Positions 1,813 to 54,123 of a stretch of DNA of 64,000 bases are shown in pieces (within the stretch, counting starts at the first letter, position 1; every line of letters starts with the position of its first letter). The translations under genes were made by a program, and so were the position numbers. Source of the stretch: a virus (taxonomy: Duplodnaviria; Caudoviricetes); the IMG/VR virus record IMGVR_UViG_3300027759_000043; one strand, written 5' to 3'. The notes under the pieces were generated by a model. That model was not told the origin of the DNA. It did no database searches and was given only the letters and a program-made list of their open reading frames with translations.

Positions 1813-2550
1813 ATGACAGAACCAGTAACACTCAACAATGTTGACAACAAAGGCTACGAAGAGGCATACCTAGCAGACGCTATCCGTTGCAAAATGCAAC
1901 GTGATAACAAACGTTTTTGGGCCGGAGACAACATCAGTGATTATGTAAACGAACAAACCAAAACACAACTGATCGACGAAGCAACCAAGGCATTTGAAGG
2001 TGTTTTGGATGCATTGCTAATCGATCGTGAGAATGATCCCAACAGCAAAGGTACAGCACGACGTTTGGCCAAGATGTACTTTAATGAAATAATGGCAGGT
2101 AGATATGAACAGTCACCAAACGCTACGGCTTTCCCAAATGATACAGACGGTGCATACGAAGGCATGTTGGTCGTTCGTTCAGAACTCAAAAGCATGTGCT
2201 CGCACCATCACCAACCTGTGTCGGGTGTGGCTTATATTGGAATCATTGCTGGACCCAAACTTATCGGACTCAGCAAGTATACACGTATCGCTCAGTGGTG
2301 TGCTCGGAGAGGAACCTTACAAGAAGAACTATGCATGGATATTGCTCGAGAGATTGGAACTGCCACTGGGTCATCCGATGTTGCGGTTTATATACAGGCT
2401 ACCCACGGATGTTGTGAGAATCGCGGTATTATGGCACACAGTAGTCTCACGCAAACTACAGTACTCCATGGTGCATTCAAGACCGACCCAAGTGTGAAGA
2501 AAGAATTTTTTGACAACATCAAACTTCAACAAGAGTTTGCACCAAGGTAA
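1813..2550 (+). CDS. folE: GTP cyclohydrolase I (type 1)
   Basis: CSHHHQP, GLSKYTRI, LQEEL, HGCCENRG motifs; SD GGAG. Confidence 0.95.
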   Translation: MTEPVTLNNVDNKGYEEAYLADAIRCKMQRDNKRFWAGDNISDYVNEQTKTQLIDEATKAFEGVLDALLIDRENDPNSKGTARRLAKMYFNEIMAGRYEQSPNATAFPNDTDGAYEGMLVVRSELKSMCSHHHQPVSGVAYIGIIAGPKLIGLSKYTRIAQWCARRGTLQEELCMDIAREIGTATGSSDVAVYIQATHGCCENRGIMAHSSLTQTTVLHGAFKTDPSVKKEFFDNIKLQQEFAPR

Positions 2551-2553
2551 CTT

Positions 2554-2748
2554 GTGTTAGAATTAATTATTGCCGTGACAATAGGGTTTATGTTGGGCTT
2601 GACCTATCGTCAAGAACGCCTAATCCATCAATACTACAAAACACGAGACGAAATAGAACAAGAACTTTTCAAAGAGTTATCGTACTATCGAAATCTCAGT
2701 GAGAGTTTAAAACAAGATTTACACGAACTTAAAACGAGGAAAAAATGA
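2554..2748 (+). CDS. Hypothetical protein with N-terminal hydrophobic segment
   Basis: ORF track; tight packing after folE. Confidence 0.6.
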   Translation: MLELIIAVTIGFMLGLTYRQERLIHQYYKTRDEIEQELFKELSYYRNLSESLKQDLHELKTRKK

Positions 2749-2858
2749 GTTGCATTTCCAATCACGACGGATCTATTCAACTGCCTGTGGAACCAGGGCT
2801 GTTGGAATGGTTACAACAACACTATCCACATTCACAATATCATTTGACTACTATATGA
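2745..2858 (+). CDS. 37-aa hypothetical protein (MSCISNHDGSIQLPVEPGLLEWLQQHYPHSQYHLTTI), below ORF-track cutoff
   Basis: SD GAGGA; ATGA overlaps with both neighbours. Confidence 0.6.
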   Translation: MSCISNHDGSIQLPVEPGLLEWLQQHYPHSQYHLTTI

Positions 2859-3256
2859 AATACCAAACACTAGAATCAGCACAGGCCGCTGGAGCGGCAC
2901 CTTGGGATCTAAAGATAGATGAACTGTCGGACTTTCATGTCACTGTGTTCCGAGATCGCTTCCCAGTCACTAACGGTCATTTGCTGTTTGTGCCCAACTT
3001 CAACACACCTGAAGTGATCAACGAAGCATTTTACAGTGCTCAATTGGCTGGAGAGTCAATGATTAACTTGGGTGAGTGTGATGCCTACAACATTGGTATC
3101 AATCAAGGACCAGCCGCTGGACAAACTGTAATGTATCCACATGTTCATTTGATTCCTCGCAAAACTGGTGACTGCACAGACCCTATTGGTGGTGTGCGTG
3201 GGGTCATTCCTGCACAACAAAACTATAAAACTGGTGGCTACAAACAGCCAGTATAA
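2855..3256 (+). CDS. HIT-family hydrolase
   Basis: FPVTNGHLLFVP and GQTVMYPHVHLIPR; start reassigned to ATG 2855. Confidence 0.85.
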   Translation: MKYQTLESAQAAGAAPWDLKIDELSDFHVTVFRDRFPVTNGHLLFVPNFNTPEVINEAFYSAQLAGESMINLGECDAYNIGINQGPAAGQTVMYPHVHLIPRKTGDCTDPIGGVRGVIPAQQNYKTGGYKQPV

Positions 3257-23127: not shown

Positions 23128-23156
23128 TTGACAGATCATAAATAAACCTGTACAAT
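23128..23156 (+). promoter_or_regulatory. sigma70 promoter of leader peptide
   Basis: TTGACA(23128)-17-TACAAT(23151). Confidence 0.8.
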
Positions 23157-23455: not shown

Positions 23456-23484
23456 TTGACTAATAAATGAAAGACTGCTACAAT
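23456..23484 (+). promoter_or_regulatory. sigma70 promoter of tRNA/ncRNA array
   Basis: TTGACT(23456)-17-TACAAT(23479). Confidence 0.75.
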
Positions 23485-23568
23485 AGAACTTAACAAAGCA
23501 ACAAAGTAGATCGATACTGGTTGCAACAGATCTTTAAAAATCTCATTCATGTAGTCCTGCATTGCAGG

Positions 23569-23789
23569 CACTATATGAGAACACATTAGGGTTACCAGAC
23601 CCGTTAGAGGCATTGGTAGAAGTGAATCGACACCGGCGGGTGTCCGCTTGCTATCAGTCATGAGGCCGGCTCTCACCGTGAGGTGATCCAGAAAAGCGGC
23701 GGATCGTCTGGCAGTAATGACCGTGGTGACTTGGCCTCGCAAGCCAAGCAGAACGAGATCCACAACGGTTCCCAAATGTTTTTTCATAT
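23569..23789 (+). ncRNA. Structured ncRNA candidate Z (~220 nt, long closing stem)
   Basis: ATATGAGAACACATTAGGG pairs with CCCAAATGTTTTTTCATAT; internal hairpins GACACC/GGTGTC, GATCC/GGATC, CTTGGC/GCCAAG. Confidence 0.65.
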
Positions 23790-23865
23790 GGTGGGTTCAT
23801 CTAGAGGCCTAGGATAGTGCCCTTTCACGGCATTCACACCGGTTCGAATCCGGTACCCACTACCA
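23790..23865 (+). tRNA. tRNA-Glu(TTC)
   Basis: GGTGGGT/ACCCACT acceptor, GTGCC-CTTTCAC-GGCAT, GGTTCGAATCC, encoded CCA. Confidence 0.95.
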
Positions 23866-23945
23866 TATAGAAACATATTGCCGAGGAGCGACGTCTTTAC
23901 CATGGGCTCCGACCATAACGAGAGGTAGTGTGTTTCTATATGGTA
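23861..23945 (+). ncRNA. Structured ncRNA candidate A (19-bp closing stem)
   Basis: TACCATATAGAAACATATT/AGTGTGTTTCTATATGGTA with G-U pairs; inner GGAGC/GCTCC hairpin. Confidence 0.65.
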
Positions 23946-24068
23946 ACCATATAGAAGTATTCTTGGCATAAGTCAAAGCAGGAGAAGAAGCCTAGTATCT
24001 GCAGATGCGAAAGTTTCAGTGGTGCAAATCCCCTCCTAGGCCTGCCGTCGAGAGTGCTTCTATATGGT
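23946..24068 (+). ncRNA. Structured ncRNA candidate B (19-bp closing stem, tRNA-like T-arm)
   Basis: ACCATATAGAAGTATTCTT/GAGAGTGCTTCTATATGGT; GCAGG/CCTGC; GCCTAG/CTAGGC; GGTGCAAATCC loop. Confidence 0.7.
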
Positions 24069-24070
24069 AG

Positions 24071-24225
24071 ATGTTATAGTCAAGCATCGATAAGGTATCG
24101 TGTATGGACGCATACACTATTCGGGTCACAGCGGCCGGCGACTGATCCTAATATAACTGCATTCGGCTTTTGCACTCTTAGCGGAGGACGCATAAATTGG
24201 CATTCTCGGTGCTTGACTATAATAT
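24071..24225 (+). ncRNA. Structured ncRNA candidate C (20-bp closing stem, multibranch)
   Basis: ATGTTATAGTCAAGCATCGA/TCGGTGCTTGACTATAATAT; inner GTGTATG/CATACAC, GGGTCA/TGATCC, TGCA/TGCA. Confidence 0.65.
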
Positions 24226-24227
24226 TT

Positions 24228-24302
24228 GGTCCGATAGTATATCGGTTAGTATTTCGCACTGTCACTGCGAGGAGACGGGTTCGATTCCCGTTCGGACCGC
24301 CA
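24228..24302 (+). tRNA. tRNA-Asp(GTC)
   Basis: GGTCCGA/TCGGACC, TCGCA-CTGTCAC-TGCGA, CCA. Confidence 0.95.
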
Positions 24303-24309
24303 AGTTTTT

Positions 24310-24374
24310 GAGAGCCGCATCGCCCTGATACTTCCCTCGGTAACGAGACACTAGGTCTTGCAACAGCGGCTCTC
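24310..24374 (+). ncRNA. Small structured element D (9-bp closing stem)
   Basis: GAGAGCCGC/GCGGCTCTC; CTCG-GTAA-CGAG GNRA hairpin. Confidence 0.5.
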
Positions 24375-24392
24375 CCCTTTAAGGAGTTGACT

Positions 24393-24629
24393 GTGACTGA
24401 TACATTAAACAACTTGTCAGCAGGCATTACTGCTACTATTGACGACATAGTAGGCAATCACAGTTACACTGATAGATTAAAGAGCATGGGGTTCCGATCA
24501 GGACAAAGTATTCAAGTTCTTAGACGAACTCCGCATTGTATGCATGTGCGAGTGGGTTTCAGTGAGTGGGCCATACGCAACCAAGATGCAAAGTTAGTAA
24601 AAATTATTCCCCGAGAGCAATCTAGGTGA
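24393..24629 (+). CDS. feoA: Stand-alone FeoA (SH3-like) domain protein
   Basis: RLKSMGFRSGQSIQVLRR..HVRVG..AIRNQDA; SD AAGGAG then GTG 24393; stop lies inside tRNA-Asn. Confidence 0.75.
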   Translation: MTDTLNNLSAGITATIDDIVGNHSYTDRLKSMGFRSGQSIQVLRRTPHCMHVRVGFSEWAIRNQDAKLVKIIPREQSR

Positions 24630-24683
24630 AGGCGGCGGACTGTTAATCCGTGAAGCCTGGTTCGAATCCAGGTCGGGGAGCCA
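24608..24683 (+). tRNA. tRNA-Asn(GTT)
   Basis: TCCCCGA/TCGGGGA, GCGGA-CTGTTAA-TCCGT, G73, CCA. Confidence 0.93.
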
Positions 24684-24703
24684 ACCTCTTAATAAGTATC
24701 GTT

Positions 24704-25366
24704 ATGACATTCGAAGATTTATGTATATTATTTTACTATCCTCCTTCTGCTGGTGGTAAGTTTATTATCAACAGTTTGAGTCTTAGTAAAAATTGTGTGT
24801 TACATTCTAATGAACTTGCGCAATGGGAACTAGATCAAACTGATATTGATTTGTTATACAAAAAAAAATTAGAAACTATCTTAAAAACTGTTCCTGAAAA
24901 TGCACTAGATGGCACTTGGCAAAAATATGAATTAGGAGACTCTTGGTTTCAAGACAAAAATCTAACGATAACACCAGATCTTCAGAAGATTATCAATAGT
25001 TCAAAACATTTTTGTTCCATATATCATAACGTTGACGAACTTCGATTAATTTTATCAATGTATCCAAGAACTCGTGTTGTAAAACTTACCAACTATGTTA
25101 ACTGGATGATTTACTGTAGTGCAAAAACAAGAATAACAGATATTGATGAAAAAAGAATCCATTGGTCGTTTATTGATAAAAATGAAATAGAATCTCCGAC
25201 AGTTGACTGGATTCTTATCGATATCGATAATTCAATAAGATCTATGGCCGTGATGCAACAGCAAATAGAAATACTTTATAACAAATTAGGATTCGACGAC
25301 TTTGACGAATCACGGTGGCGGCAGTACTATATCAAGTATGCTCAAAGTCACAAATTGGCTCCGTAG
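24704..25366 (+). CDS. Hypothetical AT-rich protein inserted between tRNAs
   Basis: TAAGTA at 24693, ATG 5 nt later; YYPPSAGGKF motif resembles YFPGAGGNF of 29296-29946; stop inside tRNA-Trp. Confidence 0.65.
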   Translation: MTFEDLCILFYYPPSAGGKFIINSLSLSKNCVLHSNELAQWELDQTDIDLLYKKKLETILKTVPENALDGTWQKYELGDSWFQDKNLTITPDLQKIINSSKHFCSIYHNVDELRLILSMYPRTRVVKLTNYVNWMIYCSAKTRITDIDEKRIHWSFIDKNEIESPTVDWILIDIDNSIRSMAVMQQQIEILYNKLGFDDFDESRWRQYYIKYAQSHKLAP

Positions 25367-25433
25367 TTCAGTCCGGCAGAACGTTGGTCTCCAAAACCAA
25401 ATGTCAGAGGTTCAAATCCTTTCGGGGTCGCCA
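25357..25433 (+). tRNA. tRNA-Trp(CCA)
   Basis: GGCTCCG/CGGGGTC, TTGGT-CTCCAAA-ACCAA, CCA. Confidence 0.92.
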
Positions 25434-25438
25434 TACAT

Positions 25439-25526
25439 GGAGGTATCGCATAGCGGTCGATTGCACGGGACTGTAAATCCTGCGTCCCAAGGGACCTCGG
25501 TGGTTCAAATCCATCTACCTCCACCA
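25439..25526 (+). tRNA. tRNA-Tyr(GTA)
   Basis: GGAGGTA/TACCTCC, CTGTAAA loop, long variable arm GTCCC/GGGAC, CCA. Confidence 0.95.
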
Positions 25527-25529
25527 TAT

Positions 25530-25603
25530 GCCTCGTTAGTTTAATGATAGAACTCCGTCTTTACACGGCGGTTACGGCAGTTCGATTTTGTCACGAGGTA
25601 TCA
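25530..25603 (+). tRNA. tRNA-Val(TAC), wobble-rich T arm, ends TCA
   Basis: GCCTCGT/ACGAGGT, CCGTC-TTTACAC-GGCGG; no encoded CCA. Confidence 0.75.
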
Positions 25604-25610
25604 TTGCTTA

Positions 25611-25794
25611 TATAAATAACTTGAGCAACGCCAGCAAGGGCTGACGTCGGACTTGATATTGACGCCTAGGGTAGAGAAACCCTTTTACTAGTGTGTTACA
25701 CGTAGAACGCCAATTCCCGTAAACATATTTCTATGTAAAGCCAGAAACATCAACAAACACTATAACAAAGTGTAAATTACTTTTTGGAACTATT
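25611..25794 (+). promoter_or_regulatory. TATAAATA late promoter followed by long structured leader of tctC-like gene
   Basis: TATAAATA at 25611; hairpins CAGC/GCTG, CGTC/GACG, AGGGT/ACCCT, GTGT/ACAC. Confidence 0.5.
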
Positions 25795-26676
25795 ATGAAA
25801 AAACTTTACATACTCTTATGCTCTGTTCTGTATTTTTGTATTGCAAGCGCGGCACCTGTTAACATTATTTTACCAGTGCCGCCAGGCGGTGTCATGACCG
25901 ATCTTGCAATGGCTCTGAGTCAAACGTTGACCGATGAAGGCATTGAAAATTTTGTATCGTATCTGCCCGGTGCAGATGGTGACATTGCATATAATACTGT
26001 GCTAAAACAACAAGATAATGTTATCTTTGAAGTTGCAGTGGCACACTCAGTATTCAGCAACGTTCTTCGTGACCGAGACAATATCTACACCAAGAATATG
26101 ACAATGATTGCACCTGTTATCCGTTCACCACTTGGATTTGTGTCTAATAACAAAAACTTTGGCTCATTTCGCGAGTTGATTGAGTATGCAAAATTAAATC
26201 CTTTGCCTTGCGGAGTAAGTGCGCCACATGGTTCAGCAGAACTAGCACGTATAAACAAAAAGTATGGAACAAGATTTGAATCAGTTCCTTACAAAGGCAA
26301 TAGTCAGTTGCGCCCTGATCTAGTAGAAGGCACATTAAGATGTGCCCTTGACAGTGTAGGATCTCACATTCCTTTGCACAATGACGGCAAACTCAAAATC
26401 CTGTCAGTTACTCATGCCACGCGAGGACTGGATGTTCTAATGATGGATCGAGTACTGCCTGGATACACATTCGATAATTGGTTTGGATTTGCTATTCCCA
26501 AGGATAGCAACATATTAAAAGACGAGCGTGTGATGAAAGTTGTTAACAACTTACACAAGTCTAAAAAACTTGAGCCATTACTTGATGCTGGATTTTTACA
26601 TGCTGTTCCACAATCAAACATCGAAAAGATCATGGATCAACAAACTGATCAGTACCGCCAACAGTTGAAAAAGTAA
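25795..26676 (+). CDS. tctC: Bug/TctC-family tripartite tricarboxylate transporter substrate-binding protein
   Basis: Signal peptide, PPGG..D..A, PGADG.IA, VPYKG, DLVEG, DNWFGFAIPK. Confidence 0.8.
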   Translation: MKKLYILLCSVLYFCIASAAPVNIILPVPPGGVMTDLAMALSQTLTDEGIENFVSYLPGADGDIAYNTVLKQQDNVIFEVAVAHSVFSNVLRDRDNIYTKNMTMIAPVIRSPLGFVSNNKNFGSFRELIEYAKLNPLPCGVSAPHGSAELARINKKYGTRFESVPYKGNSQLRPDLVEGTLRCALDSVGSHIPLHNDGKLKILSVTHATRGLDVLMMDRVLPGYTFDNWFGFAIPKDSNILKDERVMKVVNNLHKSKKLEPLLDAGFLHAVPQSNIEKIMDQQTDQYRQQLKK

Positions 26677-26677
26677 T

Positions 26678-27796
26678 ATGTACGCTTACAAGATCGACAA
26701 TCAGTTTTTTAACAATATCTATTTGGCCTTACACGAGGCAAGAAAAACTCGCAAGCAGATAGAATTTTACTGTAACGATCAAGAGTTTGACAAGTACAAC
26801 TGGACAAGCGAACCAGAAGCAACGTTAGATTTTCTCATGTCGGTCTATGCCACAAGACTGCGAAATCAACACAAACGTTTGATAATGGCATACAGTGGTG
26901 GAACAGATAGTCACACCATATACAATGTTTTTAAAAACAACAATATTCACATTGACGAGATTGTTGTCAAGACAGAGAAAAGTTCCAATCATCTTCCTAC
27001 TGCTACTGCGGATTGGTTAAGAAACAATCATTGGGATAAGACCACACTGATCACCGAGGTTGATAATTTTGATCAAGACCTCAAACTAAAAGAATCACCT
27101 GATGAAGACTGGATCTGGCGTAACGAGCGTAGCCTGTTCATGTACGGAATATCTCCAATGGGCCAAGGCATTATTGATCGGCTTGAACAGCGTTATGGAA
27201 ACACTGACTTTCGTTTGATTTGCGGGGTCGAAAAACCACGACTGATTTACAGAAACAAACATTGGTATCACCGTCAGATGGGCTTGTGTTTCCATCAAAT
27301 CATGGGCCACGAAAAAATTGTTCCGTTCTTTATGGAACCGTTGATTGCAATCAAACAAGCGCACATGTGCAAGCAAGCAGTCAAGCAATTGATTGCTGTA
27401 AACAAATTACCGTTGTATGACAACGATTGGGCTGAAGCCAAGTGGAATAAAACTCCCGAAGGATATCGTGCATGGTGCAACGGCACCGGACGTCACGATG
27501 AATTGTTTCTAGGTGTGAGTCCTGCACAAAAGGCGCTGAATGAAGTATTAGATCGAGTCGAATTTAACTTGTCTGGCAACTGGAAAAAAATGAACAATTC
27601 TAAAGATTTTAGATTATTGTATGACTTGCAAGATTCCAAACAGACTGCTGTAAACTATACCAAAGGCTTTTTGAACTTGTCAAGTGAGTTTGGATTCATT
27701 GGATGGCTTCAAGAAAACGGTTGGCTACGAAACTCTGAATCAGAATTACGTAGACTAAATTTTGTATGGTCCAAAGAATATGATTTGGGCCCGTAA
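26678..27796 (+). CDS. PP-loop (adenine nucleotide alpha hydrolase-like) protein
   Basis: MAYSGGTDSHT; G.EKPRL. Confidence 0.6.
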   Translation: MYAYKIDNQFFNNIYLALHEARKTRKQIEFYCNDQEFDKYNWTSEPEATLDFLMSVYATRLRNQHKRLIMAYSGGTDSHTIYNVFKNNNIHIDEIVVKTEKSSNHLPTATADWLRNNHWDKTTLITEVDNFDQDLKLKESPDEDWIWRNERSLFMYGISPMGQGIIDRLEQRYGNTDFRLICGVEKPRLIYRNKHWYHRQMGLCFHQIMGHEKIVPFFMEPLIAIKQAHMCKQAVKQLIAVNKLPLYDNDWAEAKWNKTPEGYRAWCNGTGRHDELFLGVSPAQKALNEVLDRVEFNLSGNWKKMNNSKDFRLLYDLQDSKQTAVNYTKGFLNLSSEFGFIGWLQENGWLRNSESELRRLNFVWSKEYDLGP

Positions 27797-27809
27797 AAAA
27801 GGATAAAAT

Positions 27810-28466
27810 ATGGACATAGGCGTTGATTATAAAAGACTAAGCGATTTTCCAGTGAAAATTCTTCAGCCACTACAAGAACTGGCATCAACAATGGATTGGT
27901 CATTACCGGACTTTGATAGGAACGGTGATTATTTGAACAACGCCATTGTTAGGGTGCCATATGGTATTCGCAAAGAACCACTGCAATCATTGACGCCAAT
28001 TATTCAACAGTTTTTAGATGCGTTTGCTCCCATTGACGCCTACATGAAAACGTTGTATCCACAACATGTATTCATCAAATGCGAAATGAACTGGCTCAAG
28101 CCTGGCGAAGTAGTGCCAATTCATAAAGATAATTGTTGGTGGCACAAACATTGTCCTCGTGTGCATGTTCCTGTAATCACAAACAAGCAATGTGGTTGGG
28201 TAGTAGAAGGACGTTTGCATCATCTACCAGTGGGCAGTTACTATGAAGTCAACAATAGAAAATTCCATTCTGCTGTTAACAATGGCAACAATGGTAGGTT
28301 GCACCTGGTGTTTGATATCATGGAACAATCGGTGTATGATAATGCTGTTGCCGCAGGAATCGACATTAGTCATCAAGACATTGTTGATCATAAACTGAGC
28401 AGTTGGGATCAATTGCCTAACGACAAAGATAACCGTCTGTTGGCTTCACTGGGGTTTGTTTTATAA
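27810..28466 (+). CDS. Aspartyl/asparaginyl beta-hydroxylase-like 2OG-Fe(II) oxygenase
   Basis: IHKD..RVHVPVITN..EVNNRKFHSAVN..RLHLVFD. Confidence 0.8.
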   Translation: MDIGVDYKRLSDFPVKILQPLQELASTMDWSLPDFDRNGDYLNNAIVRVPYGIRKEPLQSLTPIIQQFLDAFAPIDAYMKTLYPQHVFIKCEMNWLKPGEVVPIHKDNCWWHKHCPRVHVPVITNKQCGWVVEGRLHHLPVGSYYEVNNRKFHSAVNNGNNGRLHLVFDIMEQSVYDNAVAAGIDISHQDIVDHKLSSWDQLPNDKDNRLLASLGFVL

Positions 28467-28480
28467 AACTCTTTGTTGTG

Positions 28481-28509
28481 TTGACAAACAACAACTAATC
28501 GTATATAAT
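28481..28509 (+). promoter_or_regulatory. sigma70 promoter of second tRNA block
   Basis: TTGACA-17-TATAAT. Confidence 0.8.
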
Positions 28510-28528
28510 ACATGATAATAGAAACAAC

Positions 28529-28606
28529 GCACTGGTGGCAGAGTGGTCCAATGCATGGGATTGCAAATCCCAAAAGCCGCTGGTTCAAATCCAGCCCAGT
28601 GCTCCA
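28529..28606 (+). tRNA. tRNA-Cys(GCA)
   Basis: GCACTGG/CCAGTGC, TGGGA-TTGCAAA-TCCCA, U73, CCA. Confidence 0.95.
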
Positions 28607-28610
28607 AACG

Positions 28611-28841
28611 TTCCAGCGTCACTGGATAGTCTGACCCAGACGATGAGAAGTACAATGACATGTACGGGTGGTTCTGAAGAGGCAAATCTTCACATGGTAA
28701 CATGCGGTCCAACCTAACCGGCGTTAGCAACACGATAGCGGTCCCTGTCGGGAAGCGGGTGGAAGGAGTACAAGTTGCGGTGTGTAGTGGAAAGACTATC
28801 ACTCAATGCTCTATAATTACCGCCGGGGGACGCAGAGCATC
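28611..28841 (+). ncRNA. Structured ncRNA candidate E (~230 nt, many hairpins, possible pseudoknot)
   Basis: TCCAG/CTGGA, GTCT/AGAC, GTACA/TGTAC, TGAAGA/TCTTCA, CATG-GTAA-CATG, CTAAC/GTTAG; GTCCCT/GGGGAC crossing ATGCTCT/AGAGCAT. Confidence 0.65.
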
Positions 28842-28848
28842 TTATTAC

Positions 28849-28923
28849 CGCGGGATGGAGAAGCGGTAACTCGTCAGGCTCATAACCTGAAGATCGGCGG
28901 TTCGATTCCGTCTCCCGCAACCA
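28849..28923 (+). tRNA. tRNA-Met(CAT), initiator-like
   Basis: C1xA72 mismatch, TCAGG-CTCATAA-CCTGA, CCA. Confidence 0.92.
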
Positions 28924-28924
28924 A

Positions 28925-28998
28925 GCCCTTTTAGTTTAATGGTAAAACAGTTGATTTGTAATCATCAGACGTTAGTTCGATTCTATCAAGGGGCGCCA
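28925..28998 (+). tRNA. tRNA-Thr(TGT)
   Basis: GCCCTTT/AAGGGGC, TTTGTAA loop; one U-U mismatch each in anticodon and T stems. Confidence 0.8.
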
Positions 28999-29012
28999 TA
29001 CTAGGAAACATT

Positions 29013-29261
29013 ATGTTAGAATATGTCATCACCTTCTTTGCAGTATTTGCCACTGACTTGATCTATGTGTACTTTGTGAAATCAATTCAAGACAATCGTC
29101 CGCTGATGGCGGCTTGGTGGAGTATGGCGGTGACCTTTACTGCCAGTGTGGCAGTGATCAATTACACTGCGGATCACTGGGCCTTGATTCCGGCTTTGTT
29201 AGGTGCTTATTGCGGTACCTTGTTTGGCATGTGGATCAAGCGAAGAATCAACTCCGATTAG
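29013..29261 (+). CDS. Small membrane protein
   Basis: Three hydrophobic segments; SD AGGA. Confidence 0.7.
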   Translation: MLEYVITFFAVFATDLIYVYFVKSIQDNRPLMAAWWSMAVTFTASVAVINYTADHWALIPALLGAYCGTLFGMWIKRRINSD

Positions 29262-30907: not shown

Positions 30908-30997
30908 GGAGACGTGGCCGAGTGGCCTATGGCACCGGATTACTAACCCGGCGAGGTAGCAATACCTCCGTGAGTTCGAATCTCACCGTCTCCGCCA
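30908..30997 (+). tRNA. tRNA-Ser body with ACT anticodon
   Basis: GGAGACG/CGTCTCC, G73, long arm GAGGTA-GCAA-TACCTC, perfect T arm; loop TTACTAA; A31-C39 mismatch. Confidence 0.85.
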
Positions 30998-31843: not shown

Positions 31844-32032
31844 ATGAGCCGGACATTGATCTGGGTTTTATCGTTTAGTGTGCTAGGGCCAGTGCCTGAA
31901 CACGGCGAACAAGCCAAGTTCAAAACTCAAGCCGAATGCGAGCAGGCCCGGGATCAAAAACGCGAAGAATTCCGATCCCAAAACAAACGGATCGTGGCGT
32001 CTTGTCATCTCAGCACAAAGGTTGACAAATAA
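31844..32032 (+). CDS. Small hypothetical (possibly secreted) protein
   Basis: Hydrophobic N-terminus, two Cys; TAAGTA upstream. Confidence 0.55.
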   Translation: MSRTLIWVLSFSVLGPVPEHGEQAKFKTQAECEQARDQKREEFRSQNKRIVASCHLSTKVDK

Positions 32033-32050
32033 TCAAAATAAATATATACT
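32022..32050 (+). promoter_or_regulatory. sigma70 promoter of tmRNA
   Basis: TTGACA(32022)-17-TATACT(32045). Confidence 0.8.
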
Positions 32051-32056
32051 GCTAGT

Positions 32057-32339
32057 TATTGCTGTATGAAGCAGATAAAAATGGATTCAAGACTCGGGGG
32101 CAGTGCCCGAATGGTCCACCAGAAGCATAATCGATTGGCTCATAGCCAGTTGAGACATAAGAAACATGATTGTGCTTCTGGTGGGCCATACACAGGATCG
32201 ATTGGGTCAGAAGTATTGAAGTGGACAGCACATCAGAGTAGATGTTAAAACTAAAAAAAAGTAAACGCAAACGACTCACAGTTCGCATTGGCCGCGTAAA
32301 GTAGCCTAGGGTAGGAAATACCTCGTAACAGAAACCACC
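32057..32339 (+). ncRNA. ssrA: Two-piece (circularly permuted) tmRNA, tag ANDSQFALAA
   Basis: Acceptor piece ends TCGGG-GGCAGTG-CCCGA-ATGGTCC-A-CCA (32121); 17-bp intervening hairpin; coding piece starts GGGCCAT (32183) giving G3-U70; tag ORF 32267-32299. Confidence 0.9.
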
Positions 32340-32367
32340 AAGCCCGCTTCGGCGGGCTTTTTCTTTT
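32340..32367 (+). terminator. Intrinsic terminator
   Basis: AAGCCCGC-TTCG-GCGGGCTT followed by T tract. Confidence 0.9.
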
Positions 32368-32380
32368 ATAAATATCCCTG

Positions 32381-33112
32381 ATGAAACCTGTCTTAATCCT
32401 GCAACACCAAACACCTGAGCGACCTGCTTATCTTGTGACATGGTTGACGCAACACAATATTGAATATGAAACACGCTGTGCTGGTGCAGGTCAAGAATTC
32501 CCCCAATCAATAGAACCTTATTCAGCCTTGGCTGTGATGGGTGGCGGTATGAGTGCTAATGATCCGTTATTGTCAAACCGTCAAGCCGAGATCTTAATCC
32601 TGCAGGCCATGCGCCGGGATCGTCCAGTAATAGGACATTGCTTGGGTGGGCAACTCATGAGTCGCGCACTGGGTGGTGTTATCAGCACATCACCACAGCC
32701 TGAAATAGGTTGGCAACCCATTGACTATGAACAGGTTCCCGAAGTAACAGAGTGGTTTGGTAACAATCCTACTCCACGTGTGATACAGTGGCACTATGAA
32801 ACTTTCAGCATACCTGAAGGTGCCACACGGCTAGCAGGTTCCACAGCCTGTCCAAATCAAGCCTGGGCCATGGGTCCACATTTGGCCATGCAGTTTCACA
32901 TAGAAATGGATGAGATCAAAGCACGGGAATGGGTCGGAGATGAAGATCCCAAATGGGCCGCGGCCCGAGCACAATACGTTACTGTGCAAGACAGTCAAGC
33001 AATTGTGGCGGGAATCCAACCACATTTGACACAGCATCAAGCCACTGCTGATCATGTTTACCGAACTTGGCTAAAAAACACAAATTGGAACGCTGCCTTG
33101 TCAACTAACTAG
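32381..33112 (+). CDS. Type 1 glutamine amidotransferase (GMP-synthase-like GATase)
   Basis: VMGGGMS, GHCLGGQL, QWHYETF, QFHIE. Confidence 0.85.
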   Translation: MKPVLILQHQTPERPAYLVTWLTQHNIEYETRCAGAGQEFPQSIEPYSALAVMGGGMSANDPLLSNRQAEILILQAMRRDRPVIGHCLGGQLMSRALGGVISTSPQPEIGWQPIDYEQVPEVTEWFGNNPTPRVIQWHYETFSIPEGATRLAGSTACPNQAWAMGPHLAMQFHIEMDEIKAREWVGDEDPKWAAARAQYVTVQDSQAIVAGIQPHLTQHQATADHVYRTWLKNTNWNAALSTN

Positions 33113-46992: not shown

Positions 46993-48160
46993 TCATAGAG
47001 ATCCTGCGACAGGTAGGCCCATGCCCAATGGTATTCCATTGAGCCAACATCATTTGATCGAACTCATGGATGGTTATAGACTAGACTATCCTAGAATCAT
47101 ATATTACCTGCATCAGTGTCAGATTCCTATGAAAATAGTTTCAACAGTTGATGCACCTGCAGGTGCTTGGTACCCTGTTGTACTTGGATGGTTTGATTTT
47201 TCAGCAGACTATCTTGCCATGATTGATACTGCCGCATACAAGTATATCAAACAAAAACAAATGAAGTTGATATTTACGTATCATGAAGGTGATAATCCTG
47301 CTTGTATACGAGAACGTATCAATCATTTGTGTGCTGACCATGCAATAGATCCTGAACAGGTATGGTTGATAAGTGGTAACACATCGGCTGATCTTGTGCC
47401 CGGTTGTGTGTACTGGCCTGAGTTAGAATTTATGTATTGGCGCACCGTGGATCGATCAGCAGGTGCCCGGTATCATCTGCGCCCAAGAAGTCGAGCGTTT
47501 ACTGGCCTATGTAGAATAGACAAACTGTGGCGCAAAGTATTCATGAGCGAACTATGGGCCGATGATTTACATAAAAATGGATATTTTAGTTACAATCAAC
47601 ATCTATTAGGCGGTGAGGATGACTATTTTGGTTGTGCGTTGAACAACAGTTATTTGTCTAACAAACAATCGCAAGTTGACCAATTTATCGCCGCAGGACC
47701 ATTTCGTGTGGACCAACTAAACACAGACTCTCATAACAACTATGCGGCCAATATGACCAACCTCTATGAGGACAGTTATTTCAATATTGTGTTGGAAACC
47801 ATGATTGATGTGGACGATTCAGGTGGGGAGTTTCTGACAGAAAAAACATTCAAGCCTATATTCAACAATCAATTTTTTATCACGGTTAGCGGCGCCAATC
47901 ATATGGCACATCTACGTGAACTAGGGTATCAATCTTTTGGTCTTGTGATAGATGAACACTATGACACAATAGAAAACAATCAAGAGCGATTTGAAGCGGT
48001 GCTGGCGCTTACTAAAGATTTGTGTGCTAGACCATTGACAGAGTTGCACTCGATCTATCAGCAGTTACAACCGGAAATCACACACAACCATCAAGTATTT
48101 GTAGCAGGTATGGGTCACCGACTACAAGCAGTGGTTGATCGCATCAACTGCAAACCTTAA
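46973..48160 (+). CDS. GT10-like glycosyltransferase family protein
   Basis: VLETM..LTEKTFKPI..LGYQSF..IDEHYD. Confidence 0.6.
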   Translation: MIYLAIDHRDPATGRPMPNGIPLSQHHLIELMDGYRLDYPRIIYYLHQCQIPMKIVSTVDAPAGAWYPVVLGWFDFSADYLAMIDTAAYKYIKQKQMKLIFTYHEGDNPACIRERINHLCADHAIDPEQVWLISGNTSADLVPGCVYWPELEFMYWRTVDRSAGARYHLRPRSRAFTGLCRIDKLWRKVFMSELWADDLHKNGYFSYNQHLLGGEDDYFGCALNNSYLSNKQSQVDQFIAAGPFRVDQLNTDSHNNYAANMTNLYEDSYFNIVLETMIDVDDSGGEFLTEKTFKPIFNNQFFITVSGANHMAHLRELGYQSFGLVIDEHYDTIENNQERFEAVLALTKDLCARPLTELHSIYQQLQPEITHNHQVFVAGMGHRLQAVVDRINCKP

Positions 48161-49622
48161 CACTATACAACTGCTCAAAACGATCTGCATCTGCACGATC
48201 ATTCACCATGGGTTCGCCACGTATGTTAAGACTGGTGTTCAACAACATAGGGCATCCTGTTAACACGTACCATTTCTCTAGTAGTTCTCTTATGCCCGAA
48301 CCGTCCCGCGCCACAGTCTGTACTCGGCTGGTACCATCAACATGACATATAGCAGGAGTAAGGTCAGGCTGGCGACACCTAGCGACTGACTGCATATAAG
48401 GACTATGATGCCAACCCACTGGCATATCAAAATAGTCATGAACCACCTCAGCCAATATAACCGGGGCAAAAGGCCTAAACTGTTGTCTACGTTTGATTTC
48501 ATTCACTTTCTCCTTGATCTCGCTGCCTCTAGGGTCTGCAAGGAGGCTACGGTTTCCCAGTGCGCGGGGGCCGAACTCGGCTCTTCCTGATGCCACTCCG
48601 ACAATTTTGTCACTAACAAGCCGATCCAACAACTGGTTAACAGGATAAACACCTGGAATGCAATGGCCGAGATAACTGTCCCGCCAGTTAATTCTACTCC
48701 CAAGAGCCAAAGCGGCAGCACCGAGACTGCTACCAGCATCACCGGGGCAAGGCATAATCCAGATTTTGTCAAAGTAATCTCCTAACATGCGGTTGGCTGT
48801 GCAATTTAGTGCCACCCCACCCATATATACCAGATTTGAACTAAAACCTGTGTTTCTGGCACGAATCATTACTTGTCGAATAAGATCCTCTGCTACCAGT
48901 TGCCCAGAGGCCGCAATGTTTTCATTGCTGGCGCCCTTTAAGAAATCCTCACTCATTCCTGTGTGAAAGTTTTGCTTTAGTTCAATATCACGATCGTTTG
49001 CAATCACATGTGAACGCATGTCATGATACCACGTGTTACGACCCCAGGCAGCCATGCCCATAGTGATGTATTCTTCGTCTAGTGGGTGTAGGCCAATACG
49101 CTGGGTGACTGCACTGTAAAATAACCCAATGCTGTGTGGATAAACCTGTCTCCACAATCTCTTGTACCGGGCCTGGCCTTTTGAATCATATTCTGCACCC
49201 CATATACTAATAGTATCCCATTCACCAATTGCATCTATTACCACTACTGTGGCACGTTCAAAAGGTGACGTTTGAAAACCCCCTGCCGCATGCGATAAAT
49301 GATGATTATAACTATGCACCTTTGTGGGTTCAATTTGTCTACCCAGTTGTTTCTTTAATATCTGCTGGGTGGTGAGTTTGTCCCATTCAATACCTTGACC
49401 TGCGTACCATTGTCGTGCTTGTTTTGCCCAAGGGCGTTCATAGTAAGCAACCACTTCAGGACCATATGCAAGAACTTCGTCTAGCAGACCTTGACAAAAG
49501 TCTGCATCATTTTTCTTTTTGCTATAACGCTCTGAATGGCCGGCAAACAATATCTCCCCGTCAAGGCTTATGACTGTTGCAGCCGCATCATGAAAGCCAG
49601 CAGAGATGCCCAGGATGTTCAT
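48144..49622 (-). CDS. Carbamoyltransferase (NodU/CmcH/TobZ family)
   Basis: GISAGFHDAA, HHLSHA, DAIGE, GGVALNC, GPRALGNRS, RPFAP, LNTSLN. Confidence 0.92.
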   Translation of the reverse strand: MNILGISAGFHDAAATVISLDGEILFAGHSERYSKKKNDADFCQGLLDEVLAYGPEVVAYYERPWAKQARQWYAGQGIEWDKLTTQQILKKQLGRQIEPTKVHSYNHHLSHAAGGFQTSPFERATVVVIDAIGEWDTISIWGAEYDSKGQARYKRLWRQVYPHSIGLFYSAVTQRIGLHPLDEEYITMGMAAWGRNTWYHDMRSHVIANDRDIELKQNFHTGMSEDFLKGASNENIAASGQLVAEDLIRQVMIRARNTGFSSNLVYMGGVALNCTANRMLGDYFDKIWIMPCPGDAGSSLGAAALALGSRINWRDSYLGHCIPGVYPVNQLLDRLVSDKIVGVASGRAEFGPRALGNRSLLADPRGSEIKEKVNEIKRRQQFRPFAPVILAEVVHDYFDMPVGWHHSPYMQSVARCRQPDLTPAICHVDGTSRVQTVARDGSGIRELLEKWYVLTGCPMLLNTSLNIRGEPMVNDRADADRFEQLYSVKVCS

Positions 49623-49720
49623 TTGTAGATAAATGGATCTCGCTTGCGTAGTTCTTTTAATTTTTTACGATAACGAATTTCTAATGTAATTCTTGCCCAA
49701 AGTCTTTTAAACCAATTCAT
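49619..49720 (-). CDS. 33-aa basic peptide MNWFKRLWARITLEIRYRKKLKELRKRDPFIYK
   Basis: Exactly fills the gap with ATGA overlaps on both sides. Confidence 0.7.
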   Translation of the reverse strand: MNWFKRLWARITLEIRYRKKLKELRKRDPFIYK

Positions 49721-50754
49721 TTTATATTCCTAATTTGTTGTTCTGCGTAGTCTGGATCACTCCAGTGATACTCATATGTAGCCTGTGCTGTACTGGTACG
49801 TATTTTATACACGTTTTGATGTTGACTCAATTGCGAGTATATGTTGTCCCAGTCTTCTGTACCAAACGACCTCGAGAGATCAACTTGCCCGATGCAAGGG
49901 TGGCCGATTGTAAGACTTGCATCATCTGGGTCAAATCCATTCCGTTCAAGCCATAGTCGAAATTCTGCCAACTGCTTGATTTGCCAAGGGAATGAGCCGG
50001 GATCACGGGCCCATTCAATATCAAAGTCACCAGCCGCTTGAGTCTGGACACGTAGTCCTGTAGTAACCAATTCTGAAATTCTCGAATCTCTACCTTCATC
50101 TTGAAATACCTCCCAGTGATGCTTGCCCACTGCTTTATTTACACCCACATACACACCGCCCAATTTTCTGTTGATTGTGTCTATACCAAACAATTCTAAA
50201 TCTTCAGCATCTAATTCATAGCGCGGAGCGTTTAACCAACACATGAGTTGTGATGGTCTGCGCCATTCAGGTGCAGTTCGGGCTTTGCGTATGCTAAGTA
50301 CCAGGCTTTCAAACTCATGACATAGCAAATTTAACTGGCGTATGTGCCAACGTGTGTAGTCATCGGCTGAATCATAATAGGAACTCATGGCTCCGGCTGT
50401 TCCTTGTAAGTCTTCAAAGTAACGATGCAGTTGATTCATGTGTGCATGATCCACCCCTCCATTGTCAGCAACGGTGTTGGCCGGGGAGAAGAAGTCTTGT
50501 ATGGTATAGCCTAGGTTGGCTGAGTTGATGGCGTGTATACTGCGATTGATTTGAGTACACAGGTATTCAGGATTGCGAGCACTTTCAGCCCAACCCAACC
50601 AGCAGTAATTCTTTTCCAAATGTAGATTATTTTGAATAATATTATTCAACGCCGCAAGCCATTTACGGCTGAGACTGTTGTCCTCGACATCTATGTGTAC
50701 CGTTAAAATTTCATTGTTATGACCGCGCAGGTCCATTTCGATATGATCAAGCAA
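49717..50754 (-). CDS. Hypothetical protein in radical SAM cluster
   Basis: 345-aa ORF; NQLHRYFE and LNLLCHEFE His-containing helices. Confidence 0.65.
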   Translation of the reverse strand: MLDHIEMDLRGHNNEILTVHIDVEDNSLSRKWLAALNNIIQNNLHLEKNYCWLGWAESARNPEYLCTQINRSIHAINSANLGYTIQDFFSPANTVADNGGVDHAHMNQLHRYFEDLQGTAGAMSSYYDSADDYTRWHIRQLNLLCHEFESLVLSIRKARTAPEWRRPSQLMCWLNAPRYELDAEDLELFGIDTINRKLGGVYVGVNKAVGKHHWEVFQDEGRDSRISELVTTGLRVQTQAAGDFDIEWARDPGSFPWQIKQLAEFRLWLERNGFDPDDASLTIGHPCIGQVDLSRSFGTEDWDNIYSQLSQHQNVYKIRTSTAQATYEYHWSDPDYAEQQIRNIK

Positions 50755-52036
50755 TTTTCATCCACCATTCTAGTACTTCTGGTCGCGAGCCCAGGATATC
50801 TGTCATTGTTACTGACTGTGTTCTTATCTGTTCTAATTGTAAAACACGAACCTTGCCCTTGACAAGAGCCGCTTGGTATTGATCCGGCCACTGTTCTGCA
50901 AATGTGGGCCGGGTCTTTAATTGTAACAGTACATCACGCATGGCACCTGCGGAGCGGCCTGCTAGTTCGTCAACCCATGGATCCAGCACGGCTCTAGGCA
51001 ATGCTAGTGGACTCATAATGATATCTGGCGAGAAACTAAAGATAACTTTGGCCAGTAGTTCTACTCCAAACTGTCGCGCCAATTGTTGTATCGCATCAAC
51101 TTCGAGCATTCCGGGCAACGTGAGTGTAAAATCAATGCGCATTTGTCTGGGGGTTGTTGCGTAACGTAGTCCGTGTTCAAAATTACGCTTGAACTGTTCA
51201 TAATCCAATCCTGTACGAATATATTCCCCAATCTCGTTAGTTCCATCCAATGAAGCACATATTTGCCAGTCCCGGACATGGCTGAGAATATCGCCAAAAA
51301 GATCCATGCCGCGATAATTAATTCTGCTAAGGTTTGTATTATATCTAGCATACAGTCGAGGTCCATCTCCTAATTCAATTATTCGTCGCATGTAACGCCA
51401 ATGCTGTTCATACATTAGGGGTTCACCGCCAACCCAGTATATTTCTTCTACTGCATGTCGTTCCACGGCGGCAGCAAATTCGGCTTCAACCTGATTCTCC
51501 TGAAAGTGTGCGATCTGTCCACGTATATCTGTTCGCATCCAATTGTTCTTTGGATTTGATAAGTCAACCATGTTGTTCTGTTTTTGTTCACTTTCCCAGG
51601 CCGAGGATAGCATGTCGCCACAGGTTCTGCATTTGAAGTTACACAAGTTGCTGAACCTATAATCCCACGACACAGGAGCCATAGTTGTAGAACCATCCTC
51701 ACTAGTGGATGCAAATATCTCGGGTAATTTATGCTGAAATAAATGGTCGAAGTATGTTCGATATACATTGGTGTTTAAAAGTCGATCGTTGCAGACTTCG
51801 CATTCGGGCAGGGTTTCTCCAGCCATCATTCTGCGGCGCACTGACTTCATATGCTCTGAATTCCAGTGACCCTCTAGTGTAATGGGAATATACTTTCCTG
51901 TGCCCGAACTCGTATCTATATACTGCTCAAAGTTCTGCGCTGGTTCTCTTGACGCACAACACATCCTGCGTTCGGTCTGCGGTGAAAGATATGTATGCAC
52001 CCAGGGCGCAAGACACATGGTATCAGGTTTCTGCAT
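50747..52036 (-). CDS. Radical SAM protein with N-terminal twitch/SPASM-like domain
   Basis: CLAPW..MCC; CNFKCRTC; GGEPL. Confidence 0.85.
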   Translation of the reverse strand: MQKPDTMCLAPWVHTYLSPQTERRMCCASREPAQNFEQYIDTSSGTGKYIPITLEGHWNSEHMKSVRRRMMAGETLPECEVCNDRLLNTNVYRTYFDHLFQHKLPEIFASTSEDGSTTMAPVSWDYRFSNLCNFKCRTCGDMLSSAWESEQKQNNMVDLSNPKNNWMRTDIRGQIAHFQENQVEAEFAAAVERHAVEEIYWVGGEPLMYEQHWRYMRRIIELGDGPRLYARYNTNLSRINYRGMDLFGDILSHVRDWQICASLDGTNEIGEYIRTGLDYEQFKRNFEHGLRYATTPRQMRIDFTLTLPGMLEVDAIQQLARQFGVELLAKVIFSFSPDIIMSPLALPRAVLDPWVDELAGRSAGAMRDVLLQLKTRPTFAEQWPDQYQAALVKGKVRVLQLEQIRTQSVTMTDILGSRPEVLEWWMKIA

Positions 52037-52955
52037 ATGATATCAAAGGTTCAACAATTTCTTTAAATATACGTTGTTCTACTAATTCTTTATTAAAAAA
52101 TAAATTATGATTGTGTTTGAGTTTGCCAATGGTAATAGAATCATATGGAATTTTATAAAAGTTATCTATGTTTGCTATAACAGTATTTAATCTTGCATCA
52201 AAATCTTCTATGTTGTCATATGATTCGTCAAATATATTATCATATGTTTCAAATCCCAATTCTTTTAATCTTTTTAATGTATGATGTTGTCCAATAATTA
52301 AAAATGGATGATAATAAGCGCATGCCTTGAATGTTTTGTCAGTGGGCCACCAGCAGTCCCCAATTTGGCTAGTTTCCACTACGGTGCTAAAATAAGTGTC
52401 ATCGTACCACTCAGAGTTGAAAAATCGTTGATAATTTGGATCTATTGTTGTTGTATCATTGGGTAGTTTTTTGTCTTGATAACTCCATATGAAATTTTCA
52501 AGCCTGGCCCCTAGTAAATCAATTATTGCTTTTCGTTCTTTGCTTGGTCGTCTGACCGACATAAATGATAGTTTTTTATATGTTTTCTTAGGTACATAAT
52601 TATGATATCCTAAATGTTGCCACCATAAACTTTCGTTATACCAACACCAATTTTTATTATTCAATTCATAATAGTTGTTGCTGTATTCCGATCTGGGGAG
52701 TTCCCAAAGATTGTCAATTATCACAATGTGACCTGAATTTTTTAACTGGCGACTATATTTGTCATCAGCGTTCATCCACCAGACTGCAAAAAGGGTTGAT
52801 TTGTCATATGTTTTTTCACTATCAAACCATTCAATATCAAAATATTCTTGCCAAAAACTTTCTAGATAGAAACTAGTAAAACTAGTGAATTCGTCTGGTC
52901 TCAAAATTAACTTGACTTTAGACATAGTTAAGTAATTTTGCCAGTTCAGGGGCAA
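52023..52955 (-). CDS. GT10-like glycosyltransferase family protein (AT-rich)
   Basis: VVETS..TDKTFKA..PF..GFETY..FDESYD. Confidence 0.55.
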   Translation of the reverse strand: MPLNWQNYLTMSKVKLILRPDEFTSFTSFYLESFWQEYFDIEWFDSEKTYDKSTLFAVWWMNADDKYSRQLKNSGHIVIIDNLWELPRSEYSNNYYELNNKNWCWYNESLWWQHLGYHNYVPKKTYKKLSFMSVRRPSKERKAIIDLLGARLENFIWSYQDKKLPNDTTTIDPNYQRFFNSEWYDDTYFSTVVETSQIGDCWWPTDKTFKACAYYHPFLIIGQHHTLKRLKELGFETYDNIFDESYDNIEDFDARLNTVIANIDNFYKIPYDSITIGKLKHNHNLFFNKELVEQRIFKEIVEPLISYAET

Positions 52956-54123
52956 CAGTGGCTAAATTTTGTTCACGGCGGCTGTCTAATTTTTGTATTT
53001 GCTTTCGAATTTCAACACCATCAGTTGATTGGCCACGTATCATGAAATCAATGATGCCCGCAAAGTCTTCCTTGTACTTAGACGGACTTAATGCAGTATT
53101 TAAATGATTAGCGACGGCTTGTTTTGCAGAATCAGGCAATGCGCCAATGGAAAAATACGGTGCATCATGCATGATATTCCAGTATACAAAATCAAAGCCT
53201 TGTACACTGATCCAGTGTGCCAGTTGGTCGATATAACGAACATTGAATATATTCACGGTGGAACAACATTGCAGTTGAATATTAGAATGCTGCCGACGTA
53301 TTTGACGGAACAGTTCAAGATTTCTTTGAACATCAACCCATTTAGCACCAGTGCGCTGATATTCAAATCGTTCACACAAGTCATCGATACTAAATGCAAT
53401 CTCCACTGTTTTAAAATGCTTCCAAATTTCAATAGCATCCGCTGGATACTGAGTGCCATTGGTATTGTAGTGTATTTCGACTTGGTGTGCTATGCCACGG
53501 TCCACTATGCCTTGTAACATAGTAAAATGTTCTTCAATCATAAAGGGCTCGCCGCCTGTAAATTCAATGTAACGAATGTCGTTAAGTACTGAATCAATCT
53601 GTGTCCAAAATTGATCATTTTCTCTGGGCCAACGTCCGGCCTTTAACATTTGATAAGCAAAACTTGTCTTGCTGTGCGCTTCTATTGAAGTTGCGATTTC
53701 TTCTACAGCAAAACTACTGCTAGACCAAGACCCGCATATACGGCATTTGAGATTGCAGATGTTGCCCAATTTAAGGTCAAGGAACATGAGTGGCTTGGCG
53801 TCCCGAGTCCATTCCGTACTAATGCCCATGTGCTTGAGTCTGTCTAGTGTGTGCATACGTTTACTAGTACGCCCAGCGTCTTCCTCATTCCAACACTTGC
53901 GGCAAGTGGCGGGTTGTTTTCCTGCTAAGAATGCTTGTCGCAATTGGTACATGTATTCGCTATTTTGAATATCTCGAAAATTAGCAGACTTCAAGTTAAA
54001 CTTGACACTATTACTGTCTACAATTTCATCATCGGCCAAGCAACAGGGACGCACTGTACCTATAGGGCTGGCTTCTAGGCTTACCCAGGGCAATACACAA
54101 AATTTATCGTGTGGTAAATTCAT
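52918..54123 (-). CDS. Radical SAM protein with N-terminal twitch/SPASM-like domain
   Basis: CVLPW..PCC; CNLKCRIC; TGGEP. Confidence 0.85.
   Translation of the reverse strand: MNLPHDKFCVLPWVSLEASPIGTVRPCCLADDEIVDSNSVKFNLKSANFRDIQNSEYMYQLRQAFLAGKQPATCRKCWNEEDAGRTSKRMHTLDRLKHMGISTEWTRDAKPLMFLDLKLGNICNLKCRICGSWSSSSFAVEEIATSIEAHSKTSFAYQMLKAGRWPRENDQFWTQIDSVLNDIRYIEFTGGEPFMIEEHFTMLQGIVDRGIAHQVEIHYNTNGTQYPADAIEIWKHFKTVEIAFSIDDLCERFEYQRTGAKWVDVQRNLELFRQIRRQHSNIQLQCCSTVNIFNVRYIDQLAHWISVQGFDFVYWNIMHDAPYFSIGALPDSAKQAVANHLNTALSPSKYKEDFAGIIDFMIRGQSTDGVEIRKQIQKLDSRREQNLATVAPELAKLLNYV

Follow-up and report, generated by a model that had tools for sequence, protein, structure and literature searches.

RNase P cuts at the 5' end of a tRNA, so that a stop codon lying inside the tRNA is removed from the message in front of it. 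Mitochondrial mRNAs that are left with a terminal U or UA are completed to UAA by polyadenylation. In bacteria, coding sequences that overlap a tRNA or tmRNA gene (t(m)RNA) were predicted to yield non-stop mRNAs by Hudson, Lau & Williams in 2014; overlaps from the upstream side were found at 250 of 115,660 t(m)RNAs in 2031 bacterial genomes, bacterial overlaps amount to about 1 in 15,000 mRNAs and go back to few evolutionary events, and in Carsonella smpB runs into ssrA (PMC4131195). For phage T4 it was proposed that the segB mRNA is cut between its last sense codon and its stop codon during the maturation of tRNA-Arg, which lowers expression (Brok-Volchanskaya et al. 2008, PMC2330249). The general idea that tRNA maturation makes non-stop mRNAs is already published with these two studies. 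According to the passage of PMC4131195 that cites the work on arfA, the arfA mRNA is cut by RNase III and feeds ribosome rescue, and there both the truncation and the control by tmRNA are demonstrated. Genes for tmRNA are carried by the mycobacteriophage Bxz1 group and Bacillus phage G (PMC4131195) and by huge phages (PMC7162821). A literature search gave no phage-wide survey of gene/tRNA overlaps and no study of tRNA punctuation in phages. To our knowledge, phage tmRNAs have no published role connected with phage genes whose ends fall inside tRNAs.

The present study deals with a stretch of 64,000 nucleotides (the window) from an uncultured freshwater giant phage. Two genes of its tRNA cluster, a FeoA-like gene and an open reading frame starting at 24704 (ORF24704), end inside the tRNAs that follow them. 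The junctions resemble the bacterial class in that an upstream gene on the same strand has its stop inside a t(m)RNA and carries an 'apparently random' C-terminal extension set by the depth of intrusion (PMC4131195). Both tRNAs are valid by ARAGORN and by an Rfam score above the gathering score; FeoA is a Pfam-positive coding sequence, and ORF24704 is without a Pfam match but belongs to a conserved family with a dN/dS of 0.22. The junctions differ from the bacterial class in that a gene upstream on the same strand reaches into 2 of the 11 tRNAs of the window, a frequency far above the bacterial background of 250 in 115,660, and in that FeoA::tRNA-Asn occurs across a diverse phage group with four stop positions. 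By the standard of phage tRNA islands, the frequency in the window is probably not raised.

As with T4 segB, the reading frames are embedded in a tRNA cluster that would be co-transcribed, and the role of processing is a proposal there too; according to the T4 record, however, segB stops 5 nt short of tRNA-Arg and not inside it. Low expression is sensible for SegB, a homing endonuclease, whereas FeoA and ORF24704 are not nucleases; that they could be homing nucleases was rejected, as neither has a nuclease domain. As in mitochondrial tRNA punctuation, flanking tRNAs delimit the FeoA mRNA in three related contigs (L019, L020 and L022). Unlike in mitochondria, the cut ends at the two window junctions would be AU (24607) and UU (25356), to which an added A gives the sense codons AUA and UUA, and rebuilding of the stop by polyadenylation was therefore rejected. 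The likeness to arfA lies in the processing site, which is conserved and precedes the stop, so that cutting there would give a stop-less mRNA; truncation, tmRNA control and rationale are established for arfA, whereas the present case is predicted from sequence.

The two junctions in the tRNA island

The first-pass annotation had placed the TGA of feoA inside tRNA-Asn and the TAG of ORF24704 inside tRNA-Trp, and all of its coordinates for these hold by ARAGORN, Rfam and the reading frames. The region contains the following features.

23128-23156, + strand: sigma-70-like promoter candidate (TTGACA-17-TACAAT, a consensus match only), upstream of the tRNA island
23456-23484: second promoter candidate, a consensus match only
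24228-24302, + strand: tRNA-Asp(GTC), Rfam 59 bits, the upstream neighbour of the FeoA unit
24310-24374, + strand: structured 5' leader of FeoA, with a 9-bp closing stem GAGAGCCGC/GCGGCTCTC and an inner GNRA-capped hairpin
24393-24629, + strand: FeoA-like gene, 78 aa from GTG, with the Shine-Dalgarno sequence AAGGAG at 24381-24386
24608-24683, + strand: tRNA-Asn(GTT), called by ARAGORN and Rfam RF00005, with encoded CCA
24704-25366, + strand: ORF24704, 220 aa from ATG 24704, a conserved family
25357-25433, + strand: tRNA-Trp(CCA), called by ARAGORN and Rfam (64.1 bits), canonical
25439-25602, + strand: tRNA-Tyr and tRNA-Val, with which the same island continues

All 11 tRNAs of the window lie on the + strand between 23790 and 31077 (called by ARAGORN, all confirmed by Rfam). 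No promoter-like site was seen between tRNA-Asp and FeoA, the only terminator-like site on the + strand from 23500 to 29177 is a false one inside tRNA-Asp, and no promoter or terminator candidate separates FeoA or ORF24704 from the downstream tRNAs. This arrangement is consistent with the genes and tRNAs being carried on one precursor transcript. The genes of the window are packed very closely, many of them with stop/start overlaps of 4 nt, and the other two gene-to-tRNA gaps measure 9 and 62 nt. A gene for a TctC-type binding protein (25795-26676) also lies within the island.

The FeoA-like gene probably starts at GTG 24393, with AAGGAG 7 nt upstream. Its TGA (24627-24629) occupies positions 20-22 of tRNA-Asn, which makes an overlap of 22 nt. 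The product passes the domain threshold of Pfam PF04023 (9e-11, 42 bits against a cut-off of 23) with a match that spans profile positions 2-72 of 74 and stops at the last codon wholly 5' of tRNA-Asn. The homologues form 43 clusters and are named 'Fe2+ transport system protein FeoA' in the source records, and dN/dS is 0.14-0.27 at a dS of about 0.3. No feoB was seen in the examined parts of the window. The minus strand carries a run of radical SAM-like genes and a carbamoyltransferase gene at 48144-59169; it is a speculation that the phage FeoA could meet the iron demand of these genes. As regards the leader, the copy in the close relative L004 is identical, and in L010, L011 and L018 both helices are kept by compensatory changes (GCCGC/GCGGC to GCCAC/GTGGC, and CTCG-GTAA-CGAG to CCCA-GCAA-TGGG). 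Its assignment to a known riboswitch was rejected, as Rfam gave no match.

In canonical tRNAs U8-A9-G10 reads TAG, and thus offers a ready-made stop in one frame. The TAG of ORF24704 (25364-25366) is formed in this way by U8-A9-G10 of tRNA-Trp (positions 8-10), with an overlap of 10 nt. ORF24704 gave no Pfam or PHROG match. Its homologues fall into 16 clusters at 40-81% identity, its dN/dS against the metagenomic relative L004 is 0.22 at a dS of 0.64, and its AlphaFold (AF2) model is confident (pLDDT 88.8). The best PDB matches by Foldseek are all sulfotransferases, and they are weak (E ~7e-3, TM ~0.45). The family has a conserved N-terminal AGGKF motif, and the last conserved residue is H216. 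GC content is about 30% against about 45% in the surrounding region, and by its composition the gene looks like a foreign insert. An exact-peptide scan of viral contigs for ORF24704 gave no match. The junctions of the closest ORF24704 homologues (P0002, P0003 and P0005-P0007) were judged by protein tails only. Clusters P0003 and P0005 share the tRNA-encoded …LAP end; the idea that the tail of P0002 (…GTPSLIA) is encoded by another tRNA was dropped, as no locus had a matching sequence.

The two tRNAs differ in their cores. tRNA-Trp has U8, A14 and the D stem of 3-4 bp expected of a canonical elongator, whereas tRNA-Asn is non-canonical with G8, U14 and only two Watson-Crick pairs in the D stem. 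The Rfam score of tRNA-Asn is 43.3 bits against a threshold of 29, the lowest among the 11 tRNAs of the window.

Conservation of the junctions and alleles of tRNA-Asn

A search of the phage collection with the window gave tRNA-level matches only. Nine contigs with DNA were compared for FeoA, the window being one of them, and in 8 of the 9 FeoA runs into tRNA-Asn, at the same junction each time.

Window and L004 (91% identity, cluster P0017): FeoA TGA at tRNA-Asn positions 20-22
L010 and L011 (FeoA 86% identity): TAA in the anticodon loop of a diverged tRNA-Asn
L018 (FeoA 65% identity): anticodon-loop TAA, the tRNA-Asn being called at ARAGORN default settings
L019 (FeoA 51% identity): anticodon-loop TAA, the tRNA-Asn being called at ARAGORN default settings
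L020 (FeoA 46% identity): U8-A9-G10 TAG of a canonical tRNA-Asn
L022 (FeoA 45% identity): TAG at tRNA-Asn positions 5-7
L021 (FeoA 45% identity): own TGA, with no tRNA downstream

L004 reproduces both overlaps of the window base for base in an identical layout, and its tRNA-Trp is identical at 77 of 77 positions. What is invariant in the FeoA junction is that base 1 of tRNA-Asn is the third base of an Ile codon. The stop site varies with the tRNA allele, giving tRNA-encoded tails of 1 to 13 residues, and the neighbours that flank FeoA::tRNA-Asn differ between contigs on both sides. The C-terminal tails were compared in the 43 FeoA clusters: 11 end in …IPREQSR, 15 in …IPENPSKVHGRDC, and 17 stop 1-2 residues past II, with Pro alone or Pro and one more residue after it. 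For these 17 we infer from the tails a stop at tRNA positions 5-10, and the tails of all 43 clusters fit an end inside tRNA-Asn. The case that had been named as evidence of a recent accident, namely homologues stopping before the tRNA, was not encountered for FeoA in eight of the nine contigs. The conservation of the overlaps that had been put forward for checking is thus borne out, strongly so for FeoA/tRNA-Asn; the ORF24704/tRNA-Trp overlap is younger and confined to close kin.

In L019, L020 and L022, FeoA begins 5-9 nt past the CCA of the preceding tRNA, so that the gene is itself the spacer between two tRNAs. The message of FeoA in these contigs would be nearly leaderless once processed. 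The intervals in front of the gene (L019 1496-1500, L020 1489-1497, L022 1492-1497) are without a Shine-Dalgarno sequence.

The distant homologues of ORF24704 in L001-L003 and L005-L008 (42-45% identity) have ordinary stops and no adjacent tRNA, and they adjoin a gene for a MoxR-like ATPase; a radical SAM gene and a MoxR-like AAA ATPase gene were seen beside those of L001 and L003. L010 and L011 are otherwise syntenic with the window but do not have ORF24704. The low GC content, the restriction to close kin and the absence from L010 and L011 argue that the ORF24704/tRNA-Trp junction is a younger insertion. The overlap has already persisted through a dS of 0.64.

The tRNA-Asn of the window is identical at 76 of 76 positions in L004 and in L009. 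In L009, an HNH endonuclease gene (2416-2980, minus strand) ends 18 nt inside this identical tRNA-Asn; it overlaps the tRNA in a different frame from FeoA, and the two genes are unrelated. It is therefore not a peculiarity of any one gene to run into the tRNA, and the shared sequence suggests that the allele moves between phages. Comparison of the window, L020, L022, L018, L019 and L011 revealed at least four allele types of tRNA-Asn with very different D arms. The acceptor, anticodon and T stems are maintained by compensatory changes, and no allele departs from the anticodon loop CUGUUAA or from the encoded GCCA end. A relaxed ARAGORN threshold is needed to call the L010/L011 allele, which folds as a cloverleaf. 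The Rfam scores are 67.6 bits with a FeoA overlap of 10 nt, 61.1 bits with 7 nt and 43.3 bits with 22 nt, and alleles overlapped by 37-45 nt fall below the threshold. The alleles into which FeoA reads deepest are thus the least canonical, a hint that translation and the tRNA affect each other. A BLAST search for a second, canonical tRNA-Asn in the contigs with a non-canonical allele was insensitive, as it missed even L022's own copy.

Origin of the overlaps and fate of the messages

It is probable, in our judgement, that the junctions are inherited and spacer-less parts of a tightly packed, co-transcribed tRNA island, and that the non-stop fragments are a tolerated by-product. FeoA and ORF24704 would have no stop of their own, and would borrow the first in-frame stop from the downstream tRNA. 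Full-length protein would come from precursor that is still unprocessed, probably while it is being transcribed, and RNase P would then cut at tRNA +1. A cut before 24608 would leave a FeoA mRNA ending 2 nt past codon 71, which is the end of the Pfam match, and a cut before 25357 would leave an ORF24704 mRNA ending 2 nt past codon 217, just after H216. In this way 7 (FeoA) and 3 (ORF24704) unconserved codons would be removed together with the stop, and the conserved domains would stay whole. The non-stop fragments would be decayed, or their ribosomes rescued by the general systems of host or phage. Such a by-product would at most damp expression, with no dedicated timer driven by tmRNA. The purifying selection on FeoA and ORF24704 shows that functional protein is made.

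This explanation fits the fixed junction with a drifting stop, the arbitrary tails, the unrelated gene that overlaps the same tRNA and the tight packing, and the distant homologues of ORF24704 that lie away from tRNAs were counted for it. What could be counted against it is that FeoA::tRNA-Asn is kept in 8 of 9 contigs in spite of reshuffled neighbours and with FeoA down to 45% identity. Its persistence could reflect selection for coupling, or the overlap could simply leave no room for recombination. The poor fit of the most deeply overlapped tRNA-Asn alleles to the canonical form also counts against it, and with the persistence of the unit it speaks for a functional coupling. A ribosome terminating at either stop would be expected to sit on a large part of the tRNA and unfold it; at that moment, though not necessarily over the lifetime of the transcript, translation would compete with the folding of the tRNA. 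The claim that tRNA processing and full-length protein synthesis are mutually exclusive per transcript is too strong, as several rounds of translation can take place on one precursor ahead of its processing.

A second explanation is that the coupling is programmed: tRNA maturation would make non-stop mRNAs, and the phage tmRNA would tag their products for proteolysis and so limit or time expression. The tmRNA in question lies downstream of the island.

32022-32362, + strand: two-piece (permuted) tmRNA gene, with a promoter-like site at 32022-32050 and a terminator hairpin at 32340-32359

It is matched at full length by the Rfam families beta_tmRNA (32009-32362, 101 bits) and tmRNA_permuted (32060-32299, 95 bits), and its tag frame (32267-32299) reads ANDSQFALAA followed by a stop. 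The RF01850/RF04321 score, the tRNA-like domain and the ALAA end with its stop are all those of a two-piece tmRNA, and the gene and tag described in the first-pass annotation are thus real; ARAGORN misses the two-piece tmRNA. As in other large phages, a phage-borne tmRNA stands next to a large tRNA set, and the difference from other large-phage tmRNAs is its two-piece betaproteobacterial type (RF01850/RF04321). A minus-strand ORF of 152 aa that overlaps the tmRNA (32052-32510) is probably spurious.

Programmed coupling would draw on stop codons that lie 3' of the RNase P site, on the conserved overlaps and on a phage tmRNA with a promoter-like site of its own and an ALAA degron of the kind found in hosts, and the same mechanism has been proposed for T4 segB (PMC2330249) and for Carsonella smpB/ssrA (PMC4131195). 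However, the junctions show no specific link to the tmRNA. Permuted tmRNAs are found in the relatives' contigs irrespective of gene/tRNA junctions, and the contig of L001/L021 has the tmRNA though its ORF24704 homologue and its FeoA both have ordinary stops. Since relatives carry a tmRNA with or without the junctions, nothing ties it to FeoA or ORF24704, and the suggestion that it clears the ribosomes of these genes found no footing. Moreover, the truncated products would retain their conserved domain in full, purifying selection acts on both proteins, and the stop position and the tail length drift freely. Self-limitation makes sense for homing nucleases, but no need for it is apparent in FeoA or a sulfotransferase-like protein. 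We regard this explanation as unlikely; the built-in timer that had been proposed along with it is speculation, with no support so far.

Thirdly, tRNA-Asn could serve mainly as a structured 3' end, which gives the stop and shields the FeoA mRNA from exonucleases, is processed slowly or not at all and is becoming a 3' UTR element. G8, U14 and the weak D stem of the window allele would agree with such a role, as would the drop in Rfam score as the overlap deepens and the relaxed ARAGORN threshold needed for the L010/L011 allele. Against this, the stems are held by compensatory changes and the anticodon loop and GCCA end are invariant, and in L009 the window allele follows a different gene without a change in its 76 positions; these are the marks of a working tRNA. 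A role of this kind appears quite doubtful. In a further form of coupling, FeoA::tRNA-Asn would be a selected bifunctional RNA unit across a group of giant lake phages: ribosomes terminating in the body of the tRNA, in some alleles as far in as the anticodon loop, would gate the maturation of tRNA-Asn, and RNase P cleavage would switch FeoA off by non-stop decay and by tagging through the phage tmRNA. We hold it for quite improbable. That the junctions are an artefact of chance ORFs or false tRNA calls, as the missing Pfam/PHROG match of ORF24704 and the lowest score in the window for tRNA-Asn might suggest, is most improbable, since chance ORFs were rejected on the 9e-11 Pfam match of FeoA, the 16 and 43 homologue clusters, the dN/dS of 0.14-0.27 and the confident ORF24704 fold, and both tRNAs were found by two methods and stay invariant while their flanks diverge.

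If the junctions do make stop-less messages, stalled ribosomes would be generated steadily from within by phage tRNA islands, and large phages would have a concrete reason for carrying a tmRNA. FeoA::tRNA-Asn is conserved, has four natural stop positions and is of clonable size, and could thus serve as a test bed for translation versus tRNA processing. For annotators, the lesson of the present case is that a gene running over the 5' end of a tRNA in a phage island need not be an error, but can be genuine and old. A long-arm tRNA-Ser whose anticodon, ACT (A34), is unusual is conserved in four related contigs, at 30908-30997 in the window, 4628-4717 in L011, 1406-1495 in L019 and 179-268 in L021.
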